This document shows, one piece after another, positions 1,310 through 40,724 of a stretch of 64,000 bases of DNA. Each line of letters opens with the position of its first letter. Position 1 is the stretch's first letter. A model generated the notes under the pieces. It did no database searches and had not been told where the DNA came from. It worked only from the letters and a program-made list of their open reading frames with translations. The DNA lies in assembly GCA_017480545.1 (NCBI GenBank), contig JAFVAI010000012.1:5452-69451 (forward strand). The letters are read 5' to 3'. This stretch comes from Schwartzia sp. (in: firmicutes). GTDB taxonomy: Bacteria; Bacillota; Negativicutes; Selenomonadales; Selenomonadaceae. The translations under genes were made by a program, and so were the position numbers.

Positions 1310-4057
1310 ATGTCGAAATACAGAGTATACGAGTTGGCGAAGGAATTTCATACGGAGAGCAAGAATGTTTTGAAGCTTTTGACGCAGAACGGATATGAGA
1401 TCAAGAATACGCTGAGCAGCGTCGGCGAGGAAGAGCGGGCGGTTATCCAACGGCTGCTGGGCGACAAGGGGCAGAACGGGGAAAAGGGCGCGAAGCCGCA
1501 AGCAAAGCCAGCGGCCCAGACGACGCCGAACAGCCACACGCCTCCGGCCCAACGGCCGGGCGCGAAGCCGTCTGCGCAGACGAAACCGCTGGTGATGGGC
1601 ACGGTTCGCCGCATCGCCCGCGGCGCGGATATCCGCGCCGCGAAGGAGGCGGCGGAGCGCGCGGAGTTGGAGGCAAAGGAAGCCGCGGCACGCGCGGCGA
1701 AGGAAGCGGCGGAGGCCGCGACGCGTCCGAAGCCCGTCGAAGAGCCGAAGCGGCCCGAACGCGTAGAGGAACCCGCGTCGAAGCCGACGGAGCCGATCGA
1801 GAGCCGTCCGCAGCCGCAACCTCAGCCGCAGCAGGAGCGGCCTGCTCGAAAACCGCAAATCGCACAGCAGCCGCCGCAGGCGGCACAGAAACCCGCACAG
1901 CCGCAGGCCGAGCAACGTCGTCCGGCGCAACAGGGCGGAGAGAATCGTCCGACAGGAGGCAGAAACGGACATATGCAAGGAGCCGGTGCGGGGCGCCCGC
2001 AGCAAAACGCGGGCAACAGCCAAAACCAGAATCAGGGCCGCAAAAACGGCTCCGGCGACGGCAATCGTCGCGGCGGAGCGGGCGATGGCGGCAACCGCCG
2101 CAATCGCGACAACGGCGGCAAGCGCGGCGGCAAGAACCAGCGCGATGACCGCAGGAACAGCAACGGCGGGAATTTCAACAACGGCGGTTTCAATCGCAAC
2201 GAGAACCGTCCGGGGCGCAAGAACCGCAAGAACAAGAACCAACAGCCGCAGCAACAGAAGGCGGAGATCGCGCGTCCGACGCATATCAAGATTGGCGAGA
2301 CGATCGTGGTTCGCGACTTGGCCAGCAAGATGAGCTGCACGGCGGCGGACATCATCAAGAAGCTTTTCCTGATGGGCTCGATTGCGACCATCAATCAGGA
2401 AATCGATTACGACACGGCGGAGCTGGTGGCCAGCGAATTCGGCGTGACCGTGGAAGCGCTGCCGCCGGAAATCGATTTGACGGAAATCCCGGTGGTCGAG
2501 GACGATCCGAAGACGCTCGTCACCCGTCCGCCGGTGGTCACGGTCATGGGCCACGTCGACCACGGCAAGACATCGCTCCTTGATGTCATCCGCAAGAGCT
2601 CGGTGGCCCGTGGCGAGGCCGGCGGCATCACGCAACATATCGGCGCGTATCAGGTCAACTGCCAAGGCAAGAAAATCGTGTTCCTTGACACGCCGGGCCA
2701 TGAGGCATTCACGGCGATGCGCGCACGCGGCGCGCAGGTCACGGACATCGCGATCCTCGTGGTCGCGGCGGACGACGGCGTCATGCCGCAAACCATCGAG
2801 GCCATCAACCACGCGAAGTCGGCGAAAGTACCGATCATCGTCGCGATCAACAAGATCGACAAGCCGGGCGCGAACCCGGACCATGTCAAGCAACAGCTCG
2901 CCGAGCACGAACTGATTTCCGAGGAATGGGGCGGCGATGTCATCATGGTGCCCGTGTCCGCGAAGAAGGAAATCGGCATCAACGACCTCCTGGAGACGAT
3001 CCTGCTCGTCGCCGAGGTGCAGGAACTGAAAGCGAACCCGAACCGCGAAGCGCGCGGCGTCATCATCGAGGCCCAGCTGGACAAAGGCCGCGGCCCGGTG
3101 GCGACCGTGTTGGTGCAAAATGGTACGCTCCGCATCGGCGACTCCATTGTCGCGGGCACGACTTACGGCAAAGTCCGCGCGATGATCAACGACCGGGGCG
3201 AGAACGTGAAAAAAGCGCCGCCGTCGATGCCGGTGGAGGTACTCGGCCTTTCGGACGTGCCGGAGGCCGGCGACGAGTTGGCGGCTCTCGACGAAAAACT
3301 TGCGCGCGCCATCGCGGAAAAGCGCATTGAAAAGCAGCGCACGGAACTGATTCATTCGAAGAAAGTTTCACTGGACGATTTGTTCCACCAAATCCAGGAG
3401 GGCCATATCAAGGACCTCAATATCGTCATCAAAGCGGACGTGCAGGGCTCCGTCGAAGCGCTCACGGGCTCCCTCCTCGCGCTGAACAAGAACGAGGAAG
3501 TGCGCGTCAGCATCGTCCATTCCGGTGTCGGCGCGGTCAGCGAATCCGACGTCATGTTGGCGGCGGCGTCCAACGCGCTGATCATCGCCTTCAATGTGCG
3601 CCCGGATGCCAACGCGCGCAAAGCGGCGGACGCGGAAAAGATCGATATCCGCACCTATCAGGTCATCTACGACGCGCTGAACGATGTCAAGGCGGCGATG
3701 TCCGGTATGCTCGCGCCGAAGTACAAAGAAGTGGTCAGCGGCAAGGTCGAGATCCGTCAGGTCATGAAATTCTCGAAAGTCCTCGTCGCCGGCTGCTATG
3801 TGCTGGAAGGCAAGATCAGGAACGACTCGAAGGTTCGCATCATCCGCGACCATATCGTCGTCTTTGACGGCGAAGTCGATTCCCTGCGCCGTTTCAAGGA
3901 CGACGTCAAGGAAGTGGCATCCGGCTACGAGTGCGGCCTGACGCTGAAGGATTATCGCGACTTCAAGGAAGGCGATATCCTCGAAGTCTACGAGATGGAA
4001 GAAATCGAAACCTCCATCGCCGAGGTCAACGCCGCGGCGGAGGAAAAGGAAAACTAG
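1310..4057 (+). CDS. infB: Translation initiation factor IF-2
   Basis: N-terminal [13 protein letters not shown], low-complexity linker, G-domain motifs [12 protein letters not shown] / DTPGHEAF / NKID. GGAGG lies 7 nt upstream of the ATG at 1310 (the track ORF starts earlier, at 1280). Confidence 0.97.
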
Positions 4058-35117: not shown

Positions 35118-35492
35118 ATGCCCCAAACGGAGAATACCGCGACGCCGGGCCTGCCGATCAATCCGTCCGTAAAGCAGTAGGCGGAGCAAATATTGCCGAA
35201 TCTCGGCATTCCTTTGGCGACCGCGATTGACATTTATCTCCGGCAAATTGCAATCGCCGGAGGCATTCCGTTTTCTATTCGCGTGGCTCCCGTACCGGAT
35301 ACGATAAACGCCGATAGGATGAGCGCAGACGAAATCAACCAGTCGCTTGAAGCCGGGGATCGGGACGCCATATCCGCCACACAAGGGATGCGGAAATCAT
35401 GGCGGCGCAGGGATAAATTCTTTTATAACGCAAGGGGCGCGGCGGTTTTGCCATGCCCCATTCCTTGCTTTTTATGCTTTCCTGCTTTATGA
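35118..35492 (+). pseudogene. RelB/DinJ-family antitoxin remnant interrupted by an in-frame TAG (35178-35180). No partner toxin gene.
   Basis: INPSVKQ-stop-AEQILPNLGIPLATAIDIYLRQIAIAGGIPFSI matches the DinJ/RelB ribbon-helix-helix core. The reading frame then runs through a hairpin and the next cassette promoter, so the native 3-prime end is lost. Confidence 0.5.
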
Positions 35493-35493
35493 T
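35465..35493 (+). promoter_or_regulatory. Promoter of AbrB-PIN cassette 1 (TTGCTT-17-TATGAT) with flanking inverted repeat
   Basis: Hexamers read directly. The same arrangement is conserved at 40352-40380. CTTG...CAAG inverted repeats bracket the -10 (candidate operator). Confidence 0.55.
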
Positions 35494-35526
35494 ATACATA
35501 CAAGAATGAAGAGGGGGGTGTTCTCC

Positions 35527-35862
35527 ATGTTGGCGGAAATCATGGGCAGCGGGCAAATCGCTTTGCCGCCTGCCCTTATGAATCAACTGGAATGGAAAAT
35601 CGGGGACAAATTAAACATGATTGTGGAAAATGGCGAACTGCGCTTGCGCGGCGCCGAAAAGCCCGCGAAAAAAGAGTTTTTTTATATCGACAATGAAAAC
35701 GAGACGAATCCCGCCCTTCTGGCTTTGGAAGAATTAGCGCAAGCCTGCAAGGGTGCAGCCGAAGAGGCAGGTTTCAAAAACGAGGAAGAGGCACACCGAT
35801 ATATAAAAGAAGTGATTCGTCCGCAAGTGTGGGAGAAATACAATGCTGCGCGTAATGCTTGA
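35527..35862 (+). CDS. AbrB/MazE/SpoVT-type antitoxin
   Basis: GQIALPPALMNQLEWKIGDKLNMIVENGELRL swapped-hairpin motif. Overlaps the downstream PIN gene by 20 nt. Confidence 0.75.
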   Translation: MLAEIMGSGQIALPPALMNQLEWKIGDKLNMIVENGELRLRGAEKPAKKEFFYIDNENETNPALLALEELAQACKGAAEEAGFKNEEEAHRYIKEVIRPQVWEKYNAARNA

Positions 35863-36250
35863 CACCAACATATTGGTGTCAATGGCATTTTATCCCGCTC
35901 CAACAGTGAGCCGATTCTTTGGCGTACTCCATGCCGATCATAAAGCCGTGCTTTGTGAATATGTCATAGACGAGTTTCGGCGGATTGCACAACAAAAATT
36001 TCATGTTCACGATTCTGTCATTGAAACATTTCTGCACAAATTCCCCTATGAATTTGTGGCAACTTCTCAACCGGATGGATCTCTTGCCCTTCCGAAAATC
36101 CTCGATGAAAATGACGCACCGATTCTCGCCACAGCCATTCTGGAAGATGTGGACATCCTCGTAACAGGCGACAAGGATTTCTTGGTGCTTGACCTTCCAA
36201 AGCCGAAAATTATGACCATGGCAGAATTTATTGAAGCGTTTGCATCTTAA
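35843..36250 (+). CDS. PIN-domain toxin
   Basis: MLDTNILVS, DENDAPILATAI, LVTGDKDF acidic residues of the PIN fold. Confidence 0.85.
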   Translation: MLRVMLDTNILVSMAFYPAPTVSRFFGVLHADHKAVLCEYVIDEFRRIAQQKFHVHDSVIETFLHKFPYEFVATSQPDGSLALPKILDENDAPILATAILEDVDILVTGDKDFLVLDLPKPKIMTMAEFIEAFAS

Positions 36251-36288
36251 TAATGATTAGCAAAAGAAAGGGGCATGGCGGTTTCTCC

Positions 36289-36317
36289 TTGACTTTCATA
36301 CGATGGTATGATAGCAT
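36289..36317 (+). promoter_or_regulatory. Candidate sigma-70-type promoter TTGACT-17-(TG-n-)TAGCAT
   Basis: Read directly. Lies immediately downstream of the truncated hairpin after PIN gene 1 and upstream of the tandem repeats. Confidence 0.45.
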
Positions 36318-36323
36318 GAGTAT

Positions 36324-36525
36324 AGAGGAAGCAGGCTTATCCTGCTGGTGCGGCTGACACCCAAACCCGAAAAACACACCGAACGTATGAAGCGGTCAGT
36401 TGGCTGGCAACGGAAAAACCAGAAGCAAAGCCGGATATAAAGCCGGATGGTTGGCGGGCAACGGAAAAATCAGCCACTAGAGGCGGCGGACAACACTGCG
36501 GTGCTGTAGCCGCCTCTTAAATTTT
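36324..36525 (+). ncRNA. Candidate small RNA: stem-loops, two tandem repeats, and a terminal GC-rich hairpin (36479-36517) followed by TAAATTTT
   Basis: No ORF is present. The promoter is upstream. The AGAGGCGGC...GCCGCCTCT hairpin with a T-tract sits just before the RBS of the next ORF. Boundaries are inferred. Confidence 0.3.
36387..36478 (+). repeat. Two tandem copies (period about 50-51 nt) of AxxAAGCxGGxxxGTTGGCKGGCAACGGAAAAAYCAG
   Basis: Units start at 36387 and 36437 and are about 80% identical over about 41 nt. Confidence 0.7.
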
Positions 36526-36536
36526 CAGGGGGATAT

Positions 36537-37150
36537 ATGTCCATCACCAAAAAAGAAGCGCTTACAATCTTGTCGCGATGCGCGAAGATTTATGACGAAC
36601 AGCTTCGGAACAAAAACCTGTTGTTCTTGCTTATGGACAAGCAGCAGACAGTACACAGTCTTGAAACCATTTTCCTGTCCAGGAATTTCAAACACCTCAC
36701 CGGATTAGCCAGTCCGTTAGGCGCAAATAGATTCTTTGAGAAAATCCTTGCGCGTCAGCTTGGGCTGAATGAGTTTGACTTCAAAGACGATGGAACAACT
36801 GAATTGAAGCTGAAGATTCTGCCCACCTTGATGAGCAAAAATCTTTCCGCGAACATGGCCGGAAATTTCGCAGGGAAAACCGCAAAACTATATATACCGA
36901 GAAAATTGCCGGAAGATTAAACGGGAGTATGGGATTTGTTTTTGATGAAAATGCAAAGCGGTACGTTCCCAATACGGTACTGCATGAGGATATGAGGGAT
37001 ATGGTTTCCGTATTGTACCGTGTTGTTGCGACTTATCGCAAAAATATTAAGGATATTCAATATTCTGAGGTTGTTTATGCCGCAAAGCAAGTAGACTTCG
37101 ATTCTCTTGTTTTTCCGGCTGAAATTGCATATTTGCAAAGGTTGATATAA
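36537..37150 (+). pseudogene. Hypothetical nuclease-like gene split by a frameshift (127-aa ORF 36537-36920 plus 73-aa ORF 36929-37150)
   Basis: The second frame is open back to about 36860 (…YTEKIAGRLNGSMGFVFDENAKRYVPNTVL), so the two ORFs read as one about 200-aa protein. The FKHLTGL motif resembles phage Barnase/EndoU/RelE-like (PBECR-type) families, from memory only. Confidence 0.45.
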
Positions 37151-37156
37151 TTCCAA

Positions 37157-37196
37157 AGAAAAGGGGCATGGCGGCTTTGCCATGCCCCTTTTCTTT
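37157..37196. terminator. Bidirectional terminator AAAGGGGCATGGCGGCTTTGCCATGCCCCTTTT
   Basis: Perfect GC-rich stem flanked by A- and T-runs between convergent genes. Confidence 0.85.
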
Positions 37197-37207
37197 TGCA
37201 CTCGTTT

Positions 37208-37414
37208 TTAGATTTTGCAAACATACTCCTTACAGCTTGCCGCGGCGGGCTTTTTCACGCCGTATTTCTTGCACACGTTCATCGCCTTGTCGTCGTACTC
37301 CCAAAAGCCGCCGACGGTGTTCTTCGGCCGGATTGCTGCGCCTGCGGGATCGAACCAATGTTGGCAGAACGCGCAGAAGCGCGCGGTTGTTTTGACGTTG
37401 ACGGTTCGCATCAT
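37208..37414 (-). CDS. Small Cys-rich hypothetical protein (68 aa)
   Basis: CAFCQHW...C...C..YVC pattern. Last gene of the AAA+ operon. Starts 20 nt after the upstream gene's stop. Confidence 0.55.
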   Translation of the reverse strand: MMRTVNVKTTARFCAFCQHWFDPAGAAIRPKNTVGGFWEYDDKAMNVCKKYGVKKPAAASCKEYVCKI

Positions 37415-37434
37415 GATGATCTACCTCGTTGCGT

Positions 37435-38604
37435 TCAACTGAAAATGGACGAGAACAGGTTTTTGACGCCGTTCACAATGCTGCGGCCTACGGACTTGAC
37501 GCCTTCCCATGCGCGCTTCAGGACTGGCTTCGCGACTTCCGCGATTTTGTGGACGGCTTTTCCGATGGCTTTTCCGATGGTGGAACCGCCGATTCGTCCG
37601 ACGACGCCGCCGACGAAATTGCCTACCGCCATTCCAACCGGCATCAAAACGGGCATCACAGAGCCGACCATCATGCCGAGCGCTTGGCCTGCCTTTTTCC
37701 CTAACTGCTCGCCAAGATGTCCGCATACATTGGAAGCCTGCACCGTAGCGACACGCCCCATGAGATTCAAGGCTTGACCGCCGCTAATGTCGCCATCCGC
37801 GAACTGCATCACGATTTTTGCCTGTTCCACACCCGCACAGGCAAGGCCGGATACAATCGCAGCAGGGGTGCTTTTCGGCAGGAAGGGAATATATCCTTTC
37901 TCTATGCCGGCTTTGAGCGCTGCGGACGCCGCTTCCTTTACCCCCTGATCCTCGCCGCTTCTGAGAGCGTCCCCGACCTTCTTCAAATTTTGGACGTTTT
38001 CCCCCAAGGGGATGTTTTCCGCCATCTTCCAACCCGTGCGCAGGACTGTACTGGCAAGGCTTGATACCTCGACCTCTTTGCCGAGCTGCAAGGCGAGTTC
38101 ATGGGTGTTTGCCGCGTCCCATTCCTGCTCGCCATTTTCCTCAAAATCGGAAGGCTGCTCCCGTGTGCCTTCAATCGCTTCTTGGTTGGCTTGATGCAGC
38201 TCCGTATTTGCTTCAGCGAGATATGTTCCGTAATCCGATACATTGACGCCGATCGTAGATTCTTGCAGCTTTCCTTCCAGCCATTCCTCTTTCGATTTTC
38301 CCTCGGCGCAAGCCTCATGGATAGAAGCCATGTCCGCGTCCCATGCGGCGACGCTCGTGTGAATCTCTTTTCGTATGGCCTGGATTTCTTCCTCTGACCG
38401 TTCCGGCAGTTCGTCTTTCAGCGGAGCGTCCAGCCAGGCAGATTCATCGTCCTGCTCTGATTCTTCATAGGCTTTCATGAATCGCCCCATAATCGGGGCC
38501 AGCCGCTCGGCTGTTTTTTCATCAAACCCTTTGACGGAATCGGCAGTACCCTCGGAAATATCTTTGTATTCCTCTTCCGGTGCGGTATGTCGGTCGTTTG
38601 TCAT
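37435..38604 (-). CDS. Hypothetical protein with an acidic N-terminal region and a C-terminal glycine-zipper / amphipathic segment
   Basis: GMMVGSVMPVLMPVGMAVGNFVGGVVGRIGGSTIGKAIGKAV near the C-terminus. GAGGTGAG RBS. Confidence 0.65.
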   Translation of the reverse strand: MTNDRHTAPEEEYKDISEGTADSVKGFDEKTAERLAPIMGRFMKAYEESEQDDESAWLDAPLKDELPERSEEEIQAIRKEIHTSVAAWDADMASIHEACAEGKSKEEWLEGKLQESTIGVNVSDYGTYLAEANTELHQANQEAIEGTREQPSDFEENGEQEWDAANTHELALQLGKEVEVSSLASTVLRTGWKMAENIPLGENVQNLKKVGDALRSGEDQGVKEAASAALKAGIEKGYIPFLPKSTPAAIVSGLACAGVEQAKIVMQFADGDISGGQALNLMGRVATVQASNVCGHLGEQLGKKAGQALGMMVGSVMPVLMPVGMAVGNFVGGVVGRIGGSTIGKAIGKAVHKIAEVAKPVLKRAWEGVKSVGRSIVNGVKNLFSSIFS

Positions 38605-38800: not shown

Positions 38801-40327
38801 TCAGCTTATAGAGGCGTTCTTGAAATGACGCTCCTGATAGACCTTGGCCATCTTCTCGATGGACTCCTTCATGATCTCCGACAGCGACGCCGTGCTGCGG
38901 ATCGCCGAGAGCAAAAGCTCCGTCGTCAATTTGGGCTTGTCTTGTGTGAACGCCGCTTCGATGGCGTCCTTTACCACGCCTTCAATATCCGAGCCGCTGT
39001 ATCCGTTTGTTTCCTTCACCAGCGCCGAGAGGTCGATGCCCGCGAGGTCTTTCTTTCTGCGCTTGCCGATATGAATGGAGAAAATCTTTTCCCTTTCTTG
39101 GGGATTCGGCAATCCGACATAGAAAATCTCGTCAAAACGCCCTTTCCGCAGAAGCTCCGGCGGCAAATGCTCGATGTTGTTCGCCGTAGCCACCACAAAG
39201 GCCAGTCCTTCCTTCTCCTGCATCCATGTCAGGAACGTGCCGAAAAGCCGTGTCGTCACCTCATGGCCGCCGCCTCCGCTGCTGATCCCCGCGAAGGCTT
39301 TTTCCAACTCGTCAATCCAGAGCACGCAAGGAGAAATAGCCTCCGCCAAAGCAATCGCCTGTCGAAGATTCGCTTCCGATTCGCCGACGTATTTTCCCAT
39401 CAGCCGTCCCATGTCGAGCCGGAGCAGAGGCACTTCAAAGAGCGCGGCGGCGGCTTTCGCGTTCAGCGATTTCCCGCAGCCGGGCAGTCCCGCAATCAAT
39501 ACGCCCTTCGGCAAGTCCACGCCGAAGGCTTCGGCCTTGTCGATGTTCTTCAAAACCTTTGCCTTTTGCTTCAGCCATGCTTTGAGATTTTCCAGACCGC
39601 CGATGTCCTCGATGCGCTCTTTCAGCGGCACCATTTCCATGATGCCCGATTTCTGCACAAGCTGTTTCTTTTGCTCGTGGCTCAGCGCGAGGTCGGCGCG
39701 CCCGATTTCCCCGTTGTCCGCCAACGCCAGCGAAAGGATATTGATAATCTCGAATTCCGGCAAGCCTTTGAAGGCAAGGGCCAGTTCCCGCAGAAAATCT
39801 TCATGCAGCGCGTCCAAGCCTTGCTCTTCGCAGAAGCGGACGATAATTTTTCGGATTTCCTCTGCCGAGAGGTAATCAACCGTCAGAATCGTGATGTAAT
39901 GCTCCAACTCCTTCGGGATGCACGTCCTCGGAGCGATAATCACGATATTCGCGTCCGTGAGCTGTCCCGACACGATGCGCTCGGACAGATATTTGAGCTG
40001 TGCCACCACGTCCGGCGCCTCCAAGAACTGCTGCGCGTCCTTCAAGACCAGCACCCGACGCCGAAGATCATAACGCGCCGCAAACTTTTCGCTGCCTGTC
40101 TGGTTCGGGTTGGCGAAATTTCCCAATGCTTCGGGGAGCGTAACGCCGTCCACTTTTTCCTTCGATTGTTTGAAGAGCAATCCGCGCACGTTCCACTCGA
40201 CGACCTCGCGGTTTCCCGCCGCTTCCTCGATGGCGCGGTCGGCCTTGTCCTCCTCAAAGGTTGCGATGTAGAGAATCGGGAAGCCTGCATCCATATAGAG
40301 CGTCATGCGCTCCGATAGTGGTTTCAT
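38801..40327 (-). CDS. Classical-clade AAA+ ATPase with an unassigned N-terminal domain of about 240 aa
   Basis: Walker A GLPGCGKS, Walker B VLWIDELE, ATANN, PPELLRKGRFD. The ATG at 40327 follows AGGAGG (the track ORF extends to 40540 without support). Confidence 0.9.
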   Translation of the reverse strand: MKPLSERMTLYMDAGFPILYIATFEEDKADRAIEEAAGNREVVEWNVRGLLFKQSKEKVDGVTLPEALGNFANPNQTGSEKFAARYDLRRRVLVLKDAQQFLEAPDVVAQLKYLSERIVSGQLTDANIVIIAPRTCIPKELEHYITILTVDYLSAEEIRKIIVRFCEEQGLDALHEDFLRELALAFKGLPEFEIINILSLALADNGEIGRADLALSHEQKKQLVQKSGIMEMVPLKERIEDIGGLENLKAWLKQKAKVLKNIDKAEAFGVDLPKGVLIAGLPGCGKSLNAKAAAALFEVPLLRLDMGRLMGKYVGESEANLRQAIALAEAISPCVLWIDELEKAFAGISSGGGGHEVTTRLFGTFLTWMQEKEGLAFVVATANNIEHLPPELLRKGRFDEIFYVGLPNPQEREKIFSIHIGKRRKKDLAGIDLSALVKETNGYSGSDIEGVVKDAIEAAFTQDKPKLTTELLLSAIRSTASLSEIMKESIEKMAKVYQERHFKNASIS

Positions 40328-40351
40328 AAAGCTATACCTCCTTTTTGATGA

Positions 40352-40380
40352 TTGCTTTTTCGGCGTTCTTGCTTTATGAT
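40352..40380 (+). promoter_or_regulatory. Promoter of AbrB-PIN cassette 2 (TTGCTT-17-TATGAT)
   Basis: Conserved with 35465-35493. Lies in the 85-bp divergent region shared with the AAA+ operon. Confidence 0.55.
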
Positions 40381-40412
40381 ATACATACAAGAACGAAACG
40401 GGGGTGTTCTCC

Positions 40413-40724
40413 ATGTTTGCGGAAGTCATGGACAATGGACAGATTGCTTTGCCGCTCTCCCTTATGAACCAACTGGAATGGAAATCCGGGGATAAACTGG
40501 ATATGGTCTTGGAAAATGGGGAACTGCGCTTGCGTGGCATCGAAAAGCCTAAGGAAAAGGAATTTTTTTACATGAAAGACGAGAACGAAACAGATTCTGT
40601 TCTTCTGGCATTTGAGAACTTGGCGCAAGCATGCAAAGGGGCTGCCGAAGAAGCGGGATTCAAGAATGAAGAAGAACTGCAAGCATATTTAAGTTCATTT
40701 CGCAGGAAGGTACGGGAGGGCTGA
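40413..40724 (+). CDS. AbrB/MazE/SpoVT-type antitoxin, paralogue
   Basis: GQIALPLSLMNQLEWKSGDKLDMVLENGELRL. Start chosen by alignment to the 35527 paralogue. Confidence 0.75.
   Translation: MFAEVMDNGQIALPLSLMNQLEWKSGDKLDMVLENGELRLRGIEKPKEKEFFYMKDENETDSVLLAFENLAQACKGAAEEAGFKNEEELQAYLSSFRRKVREG

Follow-up and report, generated by a model that had tools for sequence, protein, structure and literature searches.

The window analysed here is a 64,000-nt stretch of DNA from Schwartzia sp. (Selenomonadaceae; GenBank assembly GCA_017480545.1, contig JAFVAI010000012.1, positions 5,452 to 69,451 of the forward strand). It contains a locus in which a gene coding for a protein of the PBECR4 family is preceded by a structured leader RNA, and the relation between these two elements is the subject of this work. 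The locus had been picked out in an earlier reading of the letters by a model (hereafter the sequence-only reading), which likened its architecture to that of type III toxin-antitoxin (TA) systems. Between positions 36100 and 37400, the features follow each other in the order MazE/AbrB-like and PIN genes, a stretch of 287 nt free of open reading frames (ORFs), two ORFs, an 18-bp hairpin and a convergent gene, the coordinates of which are collected in Table 1. The ORF list contains no forward-strand ORF in the leader, which is followed, as had been described, by a ribosome-binding site (RBS) and an ATG. The promoter that had been proposed was recovered by the promoter scan. A consensus match of such quality is by itself not above chance (2 found for 1.9 expected); this one is base-for-base identical in five related contigs (L001-L005), and TTGACA/TATAAT boxes stand at the equivalent relative position in distant loci.

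Table 1. Features at and around the PBECR4 locus of the window, followed by regions of phage-like contigs in which the RNA occurs among tRNA genes without the toxin gene.
Feature	Position	Strand	Basis
MazE/AbrB-like antitoxin gene	35347-35862		Pfam
PIN-domain toxin gene, overlapping the MazE/AbrB-like gene	35843-36250		Pfam
Direct repeat D1, copy of the 5' half of the 3' terminator hairpin	36261-36291 (copy 36261-36284); partner 37154-37184	+	81% over 31 nt
Sigma-70-type promoter: TTGACT, 17-nt spacer, TG extension (TG-n), TAGCAT	36289-36317	+	Promoter scan, conservation
P0, 5' hairpin with GCAGG-cttat-CCTGC core	36330-36346	+	Minimum-free-energy and centroid folds
U0: stem GGTG/CACC (36347-50/36358-61), loop, A-rich run, tail	36347-36369	+	Covariation
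H1, variable hairpin of repeat unit 1	36378-36396	+	4-5 bp, all compensatory, 89-98% paired
U1, self-contained H-type pseudoknot, repeat core 1, stem 1 GTTG/CAAC	36399-36422	+	Covariation
H2, variable hairpin of repeat unit 2	36430-36447	+	88-99.6% paired, all pairs compensatory
U2, repeat core 2, stem GTTG/CAAC	36450-36475	+	Covariation
Intrinsic-terminator-like hairpin with UGCG tetraloop, then T-tract TAAATTTT	Hairpin 36479-36517, element to 36525	+	Folding, -22.8 kcal/mol
RBS AGGGGGA and ATG of the PBECR4 gene	RBS 36527-36533, ATG 36537-36539	+	Sequence, ORF list
PBECR4 gene, 5' part (127-aa ORF), with His53 in FKHLTG	36537-36920	+	PF18813
TA run with frame-shifting 2-bp gain	36889-36896	+	Alignment to intact homologs
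PBECR4 gene, 3' part in shifted frame (73-aa ORF 36929-37150), with PNT motif and C-terminal strands	36895-37150	+	
Perfect 18-bp hairpin closing the cassette, bidirectional terminator common to the convergent 68-aa gene	37155-37196		Inverted-repeat search
Convergent gene, 68 aa	37208-37414	-	ORF list
Toxin-less RNA/tRNA region, contig L049	9025-9348	-	
Toxin-less RNA/tRNA region, contig L115	10513-10857	-	
Toxin-less RNA/tRNA region, contig L129	8170-9763	+	
Toxin-less RNA/tRNA region, contig L183	9957-10328	-	
Toxin-less RNA/tRNA region, contig L278	4978-5349	+	
Toxin-less RNA/tRNA regions, contigs L142, L212, L219			

The gene downstream of the leader is split into two ORFs which together code for a PBECR4 protein. 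The 127-aa ORF matches the Pfam profile of this phage Barnase/EndoU/ColicinE5-D/RelE family (PF18813) at 70.2 bits, compared with a gathering cutoff of 27 (E = 3.9e-19, profile positions 1-107), and the 73-aa ORF aligns to profile positions 131-187, being sub-threshold when taken alone. The sequence-only reading had taken the two ORFs for pieces of a single protein and had been reminded by its FKHLTGL motif of phage Barnase/EndoU/RelE-like nucleases, and both suggestions were right: the family of the repaired protein is a predicted nuclease family. All intact homologs carry the PF18813 annotation, and one of them, P0001 (203 aa), is 89% identical. The frameshift is real in the assembly and consists of a gain of 2 bp, with AAAACTATATATACC at the junction where the intact homologs in L001 and L004 have AAAAT--TGTATACC; frame 2 stays open across the junction of the two ORFs. 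His53, a candidate catalytic residue, and the Thr of the PNT motif are invariant among the aligned homologs and are both present in the two ORF pieces of the window. The insertion deprives this copy of the C-terminal half of the fold, while its RNA is intact.

At the level of the family, PBECR4 is predicted to be a metal-independent endoribonuclease with a BECR fold. The earlier impression that the protein is not ToxN/AbiQ-like holds: Pfam gives PBECR4 only, a profile search of all PDB sequences with PBECR4 gave 0 matches at E values up to 10, and ToxN, CptN, TenpN and AbiQ chains are absent among the 50 best Foldseek PDB matches listed for the AlphaFold model of P0001 (pLDDT 94, pTM 0.89). 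NCBIfam contains no family matching the protein, and the matches in PHROGs are weak and to families of unknown function. When searched against 1.84 billion representative proteins, the PBECR4 profile found 2,119 clusters (50% identity) at E <= 0.001, 559 of them at E <= 1e-30, the majority of which are solo proteins of ~200 aa.

The leader corresponds to a conserved RNA of ~190 nt made of a 5' hairpin, three small H-type pseudoknots, two variable hairpins and the terminator, and it starts at 36347, or at 36330 when the 5' hairpin is counted. In each of the three U elements, the loop of a short stem pairs with a tail of 4-6 nt located past an A-rich run, which gives a compact H-type pseudoknot. 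U1 is self-contained, with the loop CTGG (36404-07) pairing with the tail CCAG (36419-22) around an A-rich loop 3 (GGAAAAA). The other two are domain-swapped: the U0 loop GGCTGA (36352-57) pairs with the U2 tail TCAGCC (36470-75) to form helix P1, and the U0 tail CCCG (36366-69) pairs with the U2 loop CGGG (36455-58) to form helix P2. The overall layout is thus that of two ~52-nt repeat units, each with a variable hairpin in front, and a capping half-unit (U0). The two tandem repeats noticed from the letters do exist, with 24-nt cores that are 92% identical and 51 nt apart (36399-36422 and 36450-36473); they are not, however, a free-standing array, since they are two of the three pseudoknot elements of one RNA. 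The window contains two mismatch-free occurrences of the core pattern, where 0.06 matches are expected when up to 2 mismatches are allowed. A run of Tandem Repeats Finder did not report the repeats because the remainder of the units, outside the cores, has diverged (57% identity in the hairpin part). In distant loci, a hairpin of another sequence is seen at the P0 position (by eye, no formal count).

This anatomy was derived from a regular-expression parse and a MAFFT alignment of 24 loci (A4), on which the pseudoknot model has 96.6% of its cells paired and compensatory changes in 29 of its 36 pairs. None of 500 shuffles reached the observed values, and in slid controls 24-44% of the cells were paired. 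A covariance model built from A4 (R1) has one strong match in the window (36347-36476, 125.7 bits) and 105 matches across 100 metagenome loci. With 70 distinct metagenome sequences, 99.0% of the cells are paired and 26 of 34 pairs show compensatory changes, compared with 24-50% paired in slid controls. The metagenome alignment was fitted to the nested helices and its loci were found with a pattern that fixes GTTGG...CAAC, so the invariance of stem 1 there is in part a product of how the set was assembled. Covariation of stem 1 is seen in the set of loci found from the protein (GUCG/CGAC, GGUG/CACC) and in the Erysipelothrix phage phi1605 (ACGAG/CUCGU, GUCU/AGAC). The helices of U0 are 98-100% paired, with compensatory changes at each position of both pseudoknot helices, and the loop-tail helix of U1 is 99-100% paired, with all 4 of its 4 pairs covarying. 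The covariation across homologous loci, which had been named as a check on the first interpretation, is thus strong. A cyclic register in which each loop would pair with the preceding tail was rejected as a general model, its helices being 85% and 75% paired as compared with 99% and 100%; one locus (L037) is better fitted by it. R1 has a further, weak match around GTTGGCGGACAACGGGGAAA on the reverse strand (39699-39766, 16 bits, E = 0.03); it is internal to an AAA ATPase gene (38801-40540) and was judged to be due to chance.

The hairpin parts of the two units are more similar within a locus (median identity 0.70) than between loci (0.55), and reach at least 0.82 in 8 of the 24 loci. In 11 of the 24, H1 is most closely related to the H2 of its own locus; the two units of the window are among the diverged ones (0.57). 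In many lineages, the units have been homogenised within the locus. They usually number two and are 51-53 nt long, up to 67 nt in some loci. Two kinds of variants were observed. In L029 and L038, an RNA with one unit lies upstream of PBECR4, with ~170 nt between U0 and the single unit; this distance contains a conserved extra insert of ~150 nt (GCTTGATAGGGTGAGCGTAATGGCCCGTACTA...) which may be another RNA domain. L181 (7020-7155, reverse strand) and L288 represent a divergent subfamily in which a 294-aa protein with the FKHLTG motif is found behind perfectly identical 54-nt units, two in L181 and at least three in L288 (the sole array above two among 194); the stem of U0 is also GTTG/CAAC there.

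The GC-rich hairpin and T-tract reported at 36479-36517 were recovered by folding; a simple terminator scan misses this hairpin because its loop exceeds 8 nt. Of 101 distinct spacers between the RNA and PBECR4, 91 contain a terminator-like hairpin and a T-run (median dG -22.4 kcal/mol), and most of the other 10 are also terminator-like. The terminator is strong and apparently constitutive. A conserved CTGCGGTG in the terminator loop was considered as a binding or kissing site, and turned out instead to be a C(UNCG)G tetraloop closing an extended stem.

The linkage between the RNA and PBECR4 was assessed from both sides. Starting from the protein, a scan of one genome per species gave 38 PBECR4 loci from Clostridia, Negativicutes, Tissierellia, Bacilli, Staphylococcaceae and Gastranaerophilales, nearly all of which have an ORF-free gap of at least 300 nt upstream of the gene. 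The RNA is present at most 450 nt upstream of PBECR4 in 37 of the 38, the lone exception being cut by a contig end, so the repeats are indeed found in homologous loci; two units are present in 33 loci and one unit in 4. Starting from the RNA, a single-unit DNA pattern gave mostly chance matches in viral contigs and was replaced by a two-unit pattern, which occurs in 27 viral and at least 120 metagenome contigs. Contigs found with the pattern, loci derived from genomes and the window together provided 163 evaluable two-unit RNA loci, of which 108 have an intact PBECR4 gene directly downstream, at a median of 79 nt. In a further 8, the window included, a frameshift or a stop splits the PBECR4 gene; the match is partial in 16, and 31 have no PBECR4 similarity. 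Unit 2 ends a median of 83 nt before the start codon, and the terminator takes up most of that distance. Clustering of the neighbouring ORFs of 186 loci gave PBECR4 (123), integrases (13), ABC ATPases (13) and relaxases (11), and no second conserved protein neighbour, which indicates mobile elements and the absence of a gene for a protein antitoxin or immunity protein.

The counts of damaged genes also bear on the possibility that the frameshift of the window is an assembly or sequencing error and its PBECR4 copy truly intact, for which it can be said that short dinucleotide runs, such as the one in which the 2-bp difference lies, are prone to errors. Slippage of dinucleotides is a frequent genuine mutation as well, though, the 8 split genes come from independent assemblies, and some of the 16 partial matches are truncated copies. 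Truncated toxins accompanied by full antitoxin repeats have moreover been reported at known type III loci (PMC3401426). We consider an error to be unlikely; it would affect only the claim that this copy is decayed.

In annotated collections, a tblastn search with the PBECR4 homolog found one phage record and no plasmid; blastn of the locus gave no match in the annotated phage and plasmid collections, and neither did blastn with the phage-type RNA. The phage record is Erysipelothrix phage phi1605 (MF172979.1, L294), where positions 2720-3610 contain a PBECR4 homolog (37% identity, annotated as a hypothetical protein) with the same RNA upstream. The locus is flanked by a type III restriction res gene on one side and by a gene for a site-specific recombinase on the other.

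Copies of the RNA without the toxin gene are present in 8 phage-like contigs, where they adjoin or lie inside tRNA genes on the same strand (Table 1). The RNA is located beside tRNA-Pro(tgg) and other tRNAs in L049, L115 and L129; in L183, L212 and L278 it is 12 nt from tRNA-Pro(tgg) and ahead of tRNA-Gly(tcc), in an array of 10-14 tRNAs and a tmRNA. Overall, 6 of the 8 copies are at most ~600 nt from tRNA-Pro(tgg), and they are often near tRNA-Gly(tcc). Neither a terminator nor PBECR4 follows the RNA in the four contigs examined in this respect (L049, L115, L129 and L183). Copies of the L183 type have two self-contained pseudoknots as their units, and a flanking helix closes them. Since the RNA is present without the gene, it should be a module able to function apart from the gene, which counts against a purely cis-regulatory role. 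Such copies may act as antitoxin decoys that are co-processed with the tRNAs, and may hint at the targets of the RNase. There are precedents for both aspects, as phage PhiTE escapes ToxIN by producing a pseudo-ToxI RNA (PMC3475682) and phage tRNAs counter tRNA-targeting defences (PMC10264068, PMC11555353).

A different arrangement without the gene was observed in L187, where two copies of the RNA (1544-1689, reverse strand, and 2009-2141, forward strand) point away from each other, back to back, and PBECR4 is lacking behind both; L190, L196, L211 and L252 are likewise. In loci of this type both divergent copies are followed by the sequence TGTCTAACTTTTGGGGG.CACTTCA, which suggests that an inserted element replaced the genes.

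Type III loci have been recognised operationally by a Rho-independent terminator before the toxin gene and tandem repeats upstream (Blower et al. 2012, PMC3401426). Both are found at the present locus, where the terminator hairpin and its T-tract precede the PBECR4 gene and the two units, 51 nt apart, are direct repeats in one transcription unit behind a single promoter; the resemblance to type III TA loci that had first drawn attention to the region is therefore real. Antitoxin repeats of ToxIN, CptIN and TenpIN systems measure 31-62 nt overall, with ~2-5.6 copies, those of tenpIN being 39-57 nt long in 1.9-3.0 copies and those of cptIN 40-48 nt long in 1.9-3.4 copies (PMC3401426). Because the layout corresponds to the published definition, and because repeat length and copy number are in the tenpIN range, the family can be read as type III-like. 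With moderate confidence, we take the locus to be a decayed copy of a widespread two-part module, built in the manner of type III TA or abortive-infection systems, which belongs to a new type III-like TA family with a non-ToxN toxin; its layout is found again in hundreds of loci of gut bacteria. The interpretation given in the sequence-only reading, that of a decaying member of an RNA-antitoxin family, is supported in this respect: the computational checks that it suggested all turned out in its favour, and none of the refuting outcomes open to computation was observed.

From these observations we infer an antitoxin function of the RNA, toxicity of PBECR4, processing of the RNA and a role in phage defence. 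Support for neutralisation and processing is indirect and comes from the obligate linkage, the lack of a protein partner, the RNA-only copies and the copies with a decayed toxin gene. According to the proposed mechanism, the single promoter would drive transcription of the structured RNA of ~190 nt, and the terminator would stop most transcripts after it, leaving the RNA in excess over the read-through PBECR4 mRNA. The RNA, either whole or cut into units by PBECR4, would bind the RNase and neutralise it in trans. If transcription stopped or the RNA were degraded, for instance upon phage infection, the longer-lived RNase would be freed and could cut cellular or phage RNA.

Several points weigh against this type III-like interpretation. 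The RNA forms one closed domain with long-range U0-U2 helices, which is more reminiscent of a dedicated aptamer or scaffold than of a ToxI-type array, and the copy number is almost fixed at two, with three or more units in only 1 of 194 pattern-seeded arrays. The counts from RNA-seeded loci come from the pattern fixing GTTGG...CAAC and are biased to canonical two-unit forms. The model of P0001, confident as it is, has no significant structural match in the PDB (best Foldseek E = 0.02, none at E <= 0.001), and the sole nuclease-like structural matches, to RelE and HigB, have a probability of at most 0.21; the assignment as an RNase therefore depends on membership of the Pfam family and on the activity predicted for that family in the literature. 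PADLOC does not model the protein, and thus gives no independent sign of a defence role.

A wider proposal, which we put forward only tentatively, is that PBECR4 and its upstream RNA form an unrecognised and widespread RNA-antitoxin abortive-infection family of gut Firmicutes. In this proposal, a BECR-fold RNase would be held by a domain-swapped triple-pseudoknot RNA, and phages would counter it with toxin-less copies of the RNA in their tRNA arrays. Those copies would be natural decoys processed along with the tRNAs, a hint that tRNA is what the RNase attacks. The figure of ~2,100 clusters at 50% identity refers to the protein profile only, the linkage to the RNA having been checked in 38 genome loci.

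As for other explanations of the pair, the leader could be cis-regulatory, that is to say a riboswitch-like or protein-binding 5' UTR (untranslated region) which controls read-through of the terminator or translation of PBECR4, with no antitoxin role. The RNA is indeed located in the 5' UTR, directly ahead of the terminator and the gene, and has a single closed fold with long-range helices and a nearly fixed architecture. H-type pseudoknots of small size, with A-rich tails, are known from riboswitches such as preQ1-I. Attenuation would, however, involve mutually exclusive terminator and antiterminator pairings, and these were not found: in a test on 31 loci, the arms of the terminator paired with the upstream RNA no better than shuffled arms did (median z = 0.2), and the best duplex of the 5' arm with the upstream RNA had a median of -8.1 kcal/mol, compared with -21.9 kcal/mol for the terminator. 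The negative result is that of a simple arm-pairing test and is compatible with protein- or ligand-mediated effects. The RNA is also not confined to cis, given the phage tRNA arrays in which it lacks both gene and terminator and the 31 of 163 loci without PBECR4 similarity, and its units have been repeatedly homogenised or duplicated within loci. In a scan of 35500-37800 with Rfam 15, no family, riboswitches included, matched the leader (36289-36536), even at E values up to 10; the Rfam matches are restricted to the 3' terminator hairpin at 37155-37196 and are all below the gathering scores. Altogether, a purely cis-regulatory leader seems distinctly unlikely.

Slightly less probable again, in our view, is that PBECR4 and the RNA are a working ribonucleoprotein in which the RNA does not switch the enzyme off but serves as a scaffold, as a specificity or activating subunit, or as a substrate processed in the manner of Cas6. 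Such a cofactor or substrate would account for the same obligate linkage and the same lack of a protein partner. Stem 1 and the A-rich loop are near-invariant and stem 2 is free to vary, which suggests sequence-specific recognition of each unit by a protein. The excess of RNA that the terminator would produce and the many cases in which the enzyme is lost and the RNA kept nevertheless fit an antidote better, and the RNA-only copies of phages are easier to understand as decoys, as a phage would have little to gain from supplying a cofactor to a nuclease of its host. It is highly improbable that the RNA is an independent small RNA gene that merely travels with PBECR4 on mobile elements with no functional link, since, even though it has its own promoter and terminator and can occur alone, it is immediately upstream of the gene in 37 of 38 loci across Clostridia, Erysipelotrichia, Negativicutes, Tissierellia, Staphylococcaceae and Gastranaerophilales, among unrelated flanking genes, and too little room is left between the terminator and the start codon for PBECR4 to have a promoter of its own.

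Between the -35 box and the ATG, the five contigs carrying P0001 share ~95% identity with the window, to which they are unrelated farther upstream, and within the window/L001 lineage homology extends from ~25 nt upstream of the -35 box through the end of the 3' hairpin; the homology of the window to L001 and L002 ends immediately past that hairpin. The direct repeat D1, located just before the -35 box, exceeds shuffles with z = 8.3 in the window and z = 6.9 in L001. A half-hairpin repeat of this type is not present in the distant loci that were compared. As it is confined to the window/L001 lineage, D1 is best regarded as a scar of that lineage and not as a trait of the family; integron-like cassette flanks, which had been considered, were ruled out on the same ground. 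The scar may have originated from tandem cassettes or from an insertion into the loop of the terminator. Directly upstream of the cassette, the MazE/AbrB-like and PIN genes form a VapBC-like type II TA pair (35347-36250) in a patch of lower GC content (~45%, as compared with 57% for the window). L002, a related contig, has no PIN gene, and its AbrB-like gene continues directly into the promoter of the RNA. On the 3' side, the reverse strand codes for the 68-aa protein, which is Cys-rich, and a 389-aa protein without Pfam match (37208-38604), followed by a 579-aa AAA+ ATPase (38801-40540).

Neither this RNA nor its association with PBECR4 was found described in Rfam, PADLOC, NCBIfam, the PDB or the searchable literature, beyond which further papers may exist. 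The relevant passages of the 2017 paper on PBECR domains (PMC5512222) and of a 2026 preprint on BECR classification do not mention the RNA. The PBECR4 family is large (the 2,119 clusters given above), common in human and animal gut, and has no assigned biology, so a nearly constant structured-RNA partner provides a concrete and testable function for it. As a possible new Rfam family the RNA, whose covariation is unusually clean, is a strong candidate; for annotation purposes, it accounts for the absence of ORFs over ~300 nt or more, and often over longer distances, upstream of PBECR4 in the loci examined. If the type III-like interpretation is true, a new toxin fold and a new RNA architecture, that of domain-swapped H-type pseudoknots, would be added to the few RNA-antitoxin systems. 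The RNA copies in phage tRNA arrays would extend two themes, namely phage tRNAs as counter-defence and RNA mimicry of antitoxins.

Comparison with known systems shows which of these the module resembles, and in what. With the preQ1-I riboswitch, it shares a compact stem whose loop pairs with a 3' tail past an A-rich tract, in a 5' UTR before a terminator; the PBECR4 RNA differs in having three pseudoknots in a swapped arrangement, no Rfam match, no antiterminator, and copies without a downstream gene. The predicted BECR fold class is that of RelE/ParE, HigB and the tRNases of the colicin D/E5 type, whereas those toxins have a protein antitoxin or immunity protein in their neighbourhood and none is conserved beside PBECR4 (186 loci). 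Iyer et al. (2017) described PBECR domains in polyvalent proteins of phages and conjugative elements, with solo versions in phages and mobile elements, and proposed an offensive role in which injected PBECR domains act against host or CRISPR RNAs (PMC5512222). The protein family and the predicted activity are the same as here, but the relevant passages of that paper mention no associated RNA (PMC5512222), and the present solo PBECR4 proteins, chromosomal or borne by mobile elements, are paired with a structured RNA and a terminator and have no immunity protein.

RNA antitoxins are not bound to one toxin fold. The AvcID system illustrates that type III toxins need not be ToxN-like, AvcD being a deoxycytidylate deaminase (PMC10511110), and an RNA-antitoxin system of the AbiF type has been described, AbiF belonging to the AbiD/F family (bioRxiv 10.1101/2025.04.15.648962). 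In both, a protein toxin is neutralised by a small RNA, as is proposed for PBECR4; neither is known to use an RNA of the PBECR4 type or a BECR RNase.

The closest parallels are with ToxIN, CptIN and TenpIN, which have the same succession of promoter, tandem RNA repeats, Rho-independent terminator and toxin gene of ~200 aa. The repeats of the PBECR4 module (51-53 nt, ~2 copies) lie inside the tenpIN range. The repeat RNA is pseudoknotted in all of them, the toxin is a metal-independent endoribonuclease (predicted in the case of PBECR4), and the loci are on mobile elements, mostly of Firmicutes, with some copies in which the toxin is truncated and the repeats are complete. The toxin-less RNA copies on phages likewise have a counterpart in the pseudo-ToxI of PhiTE. 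On the other hand, PBECR4 with its BECR fold is unrelated to ToxN, CptN, TenpN and AbiQ by sequence or structure, and its RNA has no similarity to ToxI, from which it also differs by being one closed domain, by the swapping of pseudoknot strands between U0 and the last unit, and by the extra variable hairpin in each unit. As its toxin has no homology to theirs, the module is not a member of the ToxIN, CptIN and TenpIN families; standing outside them, it appears to work like them.

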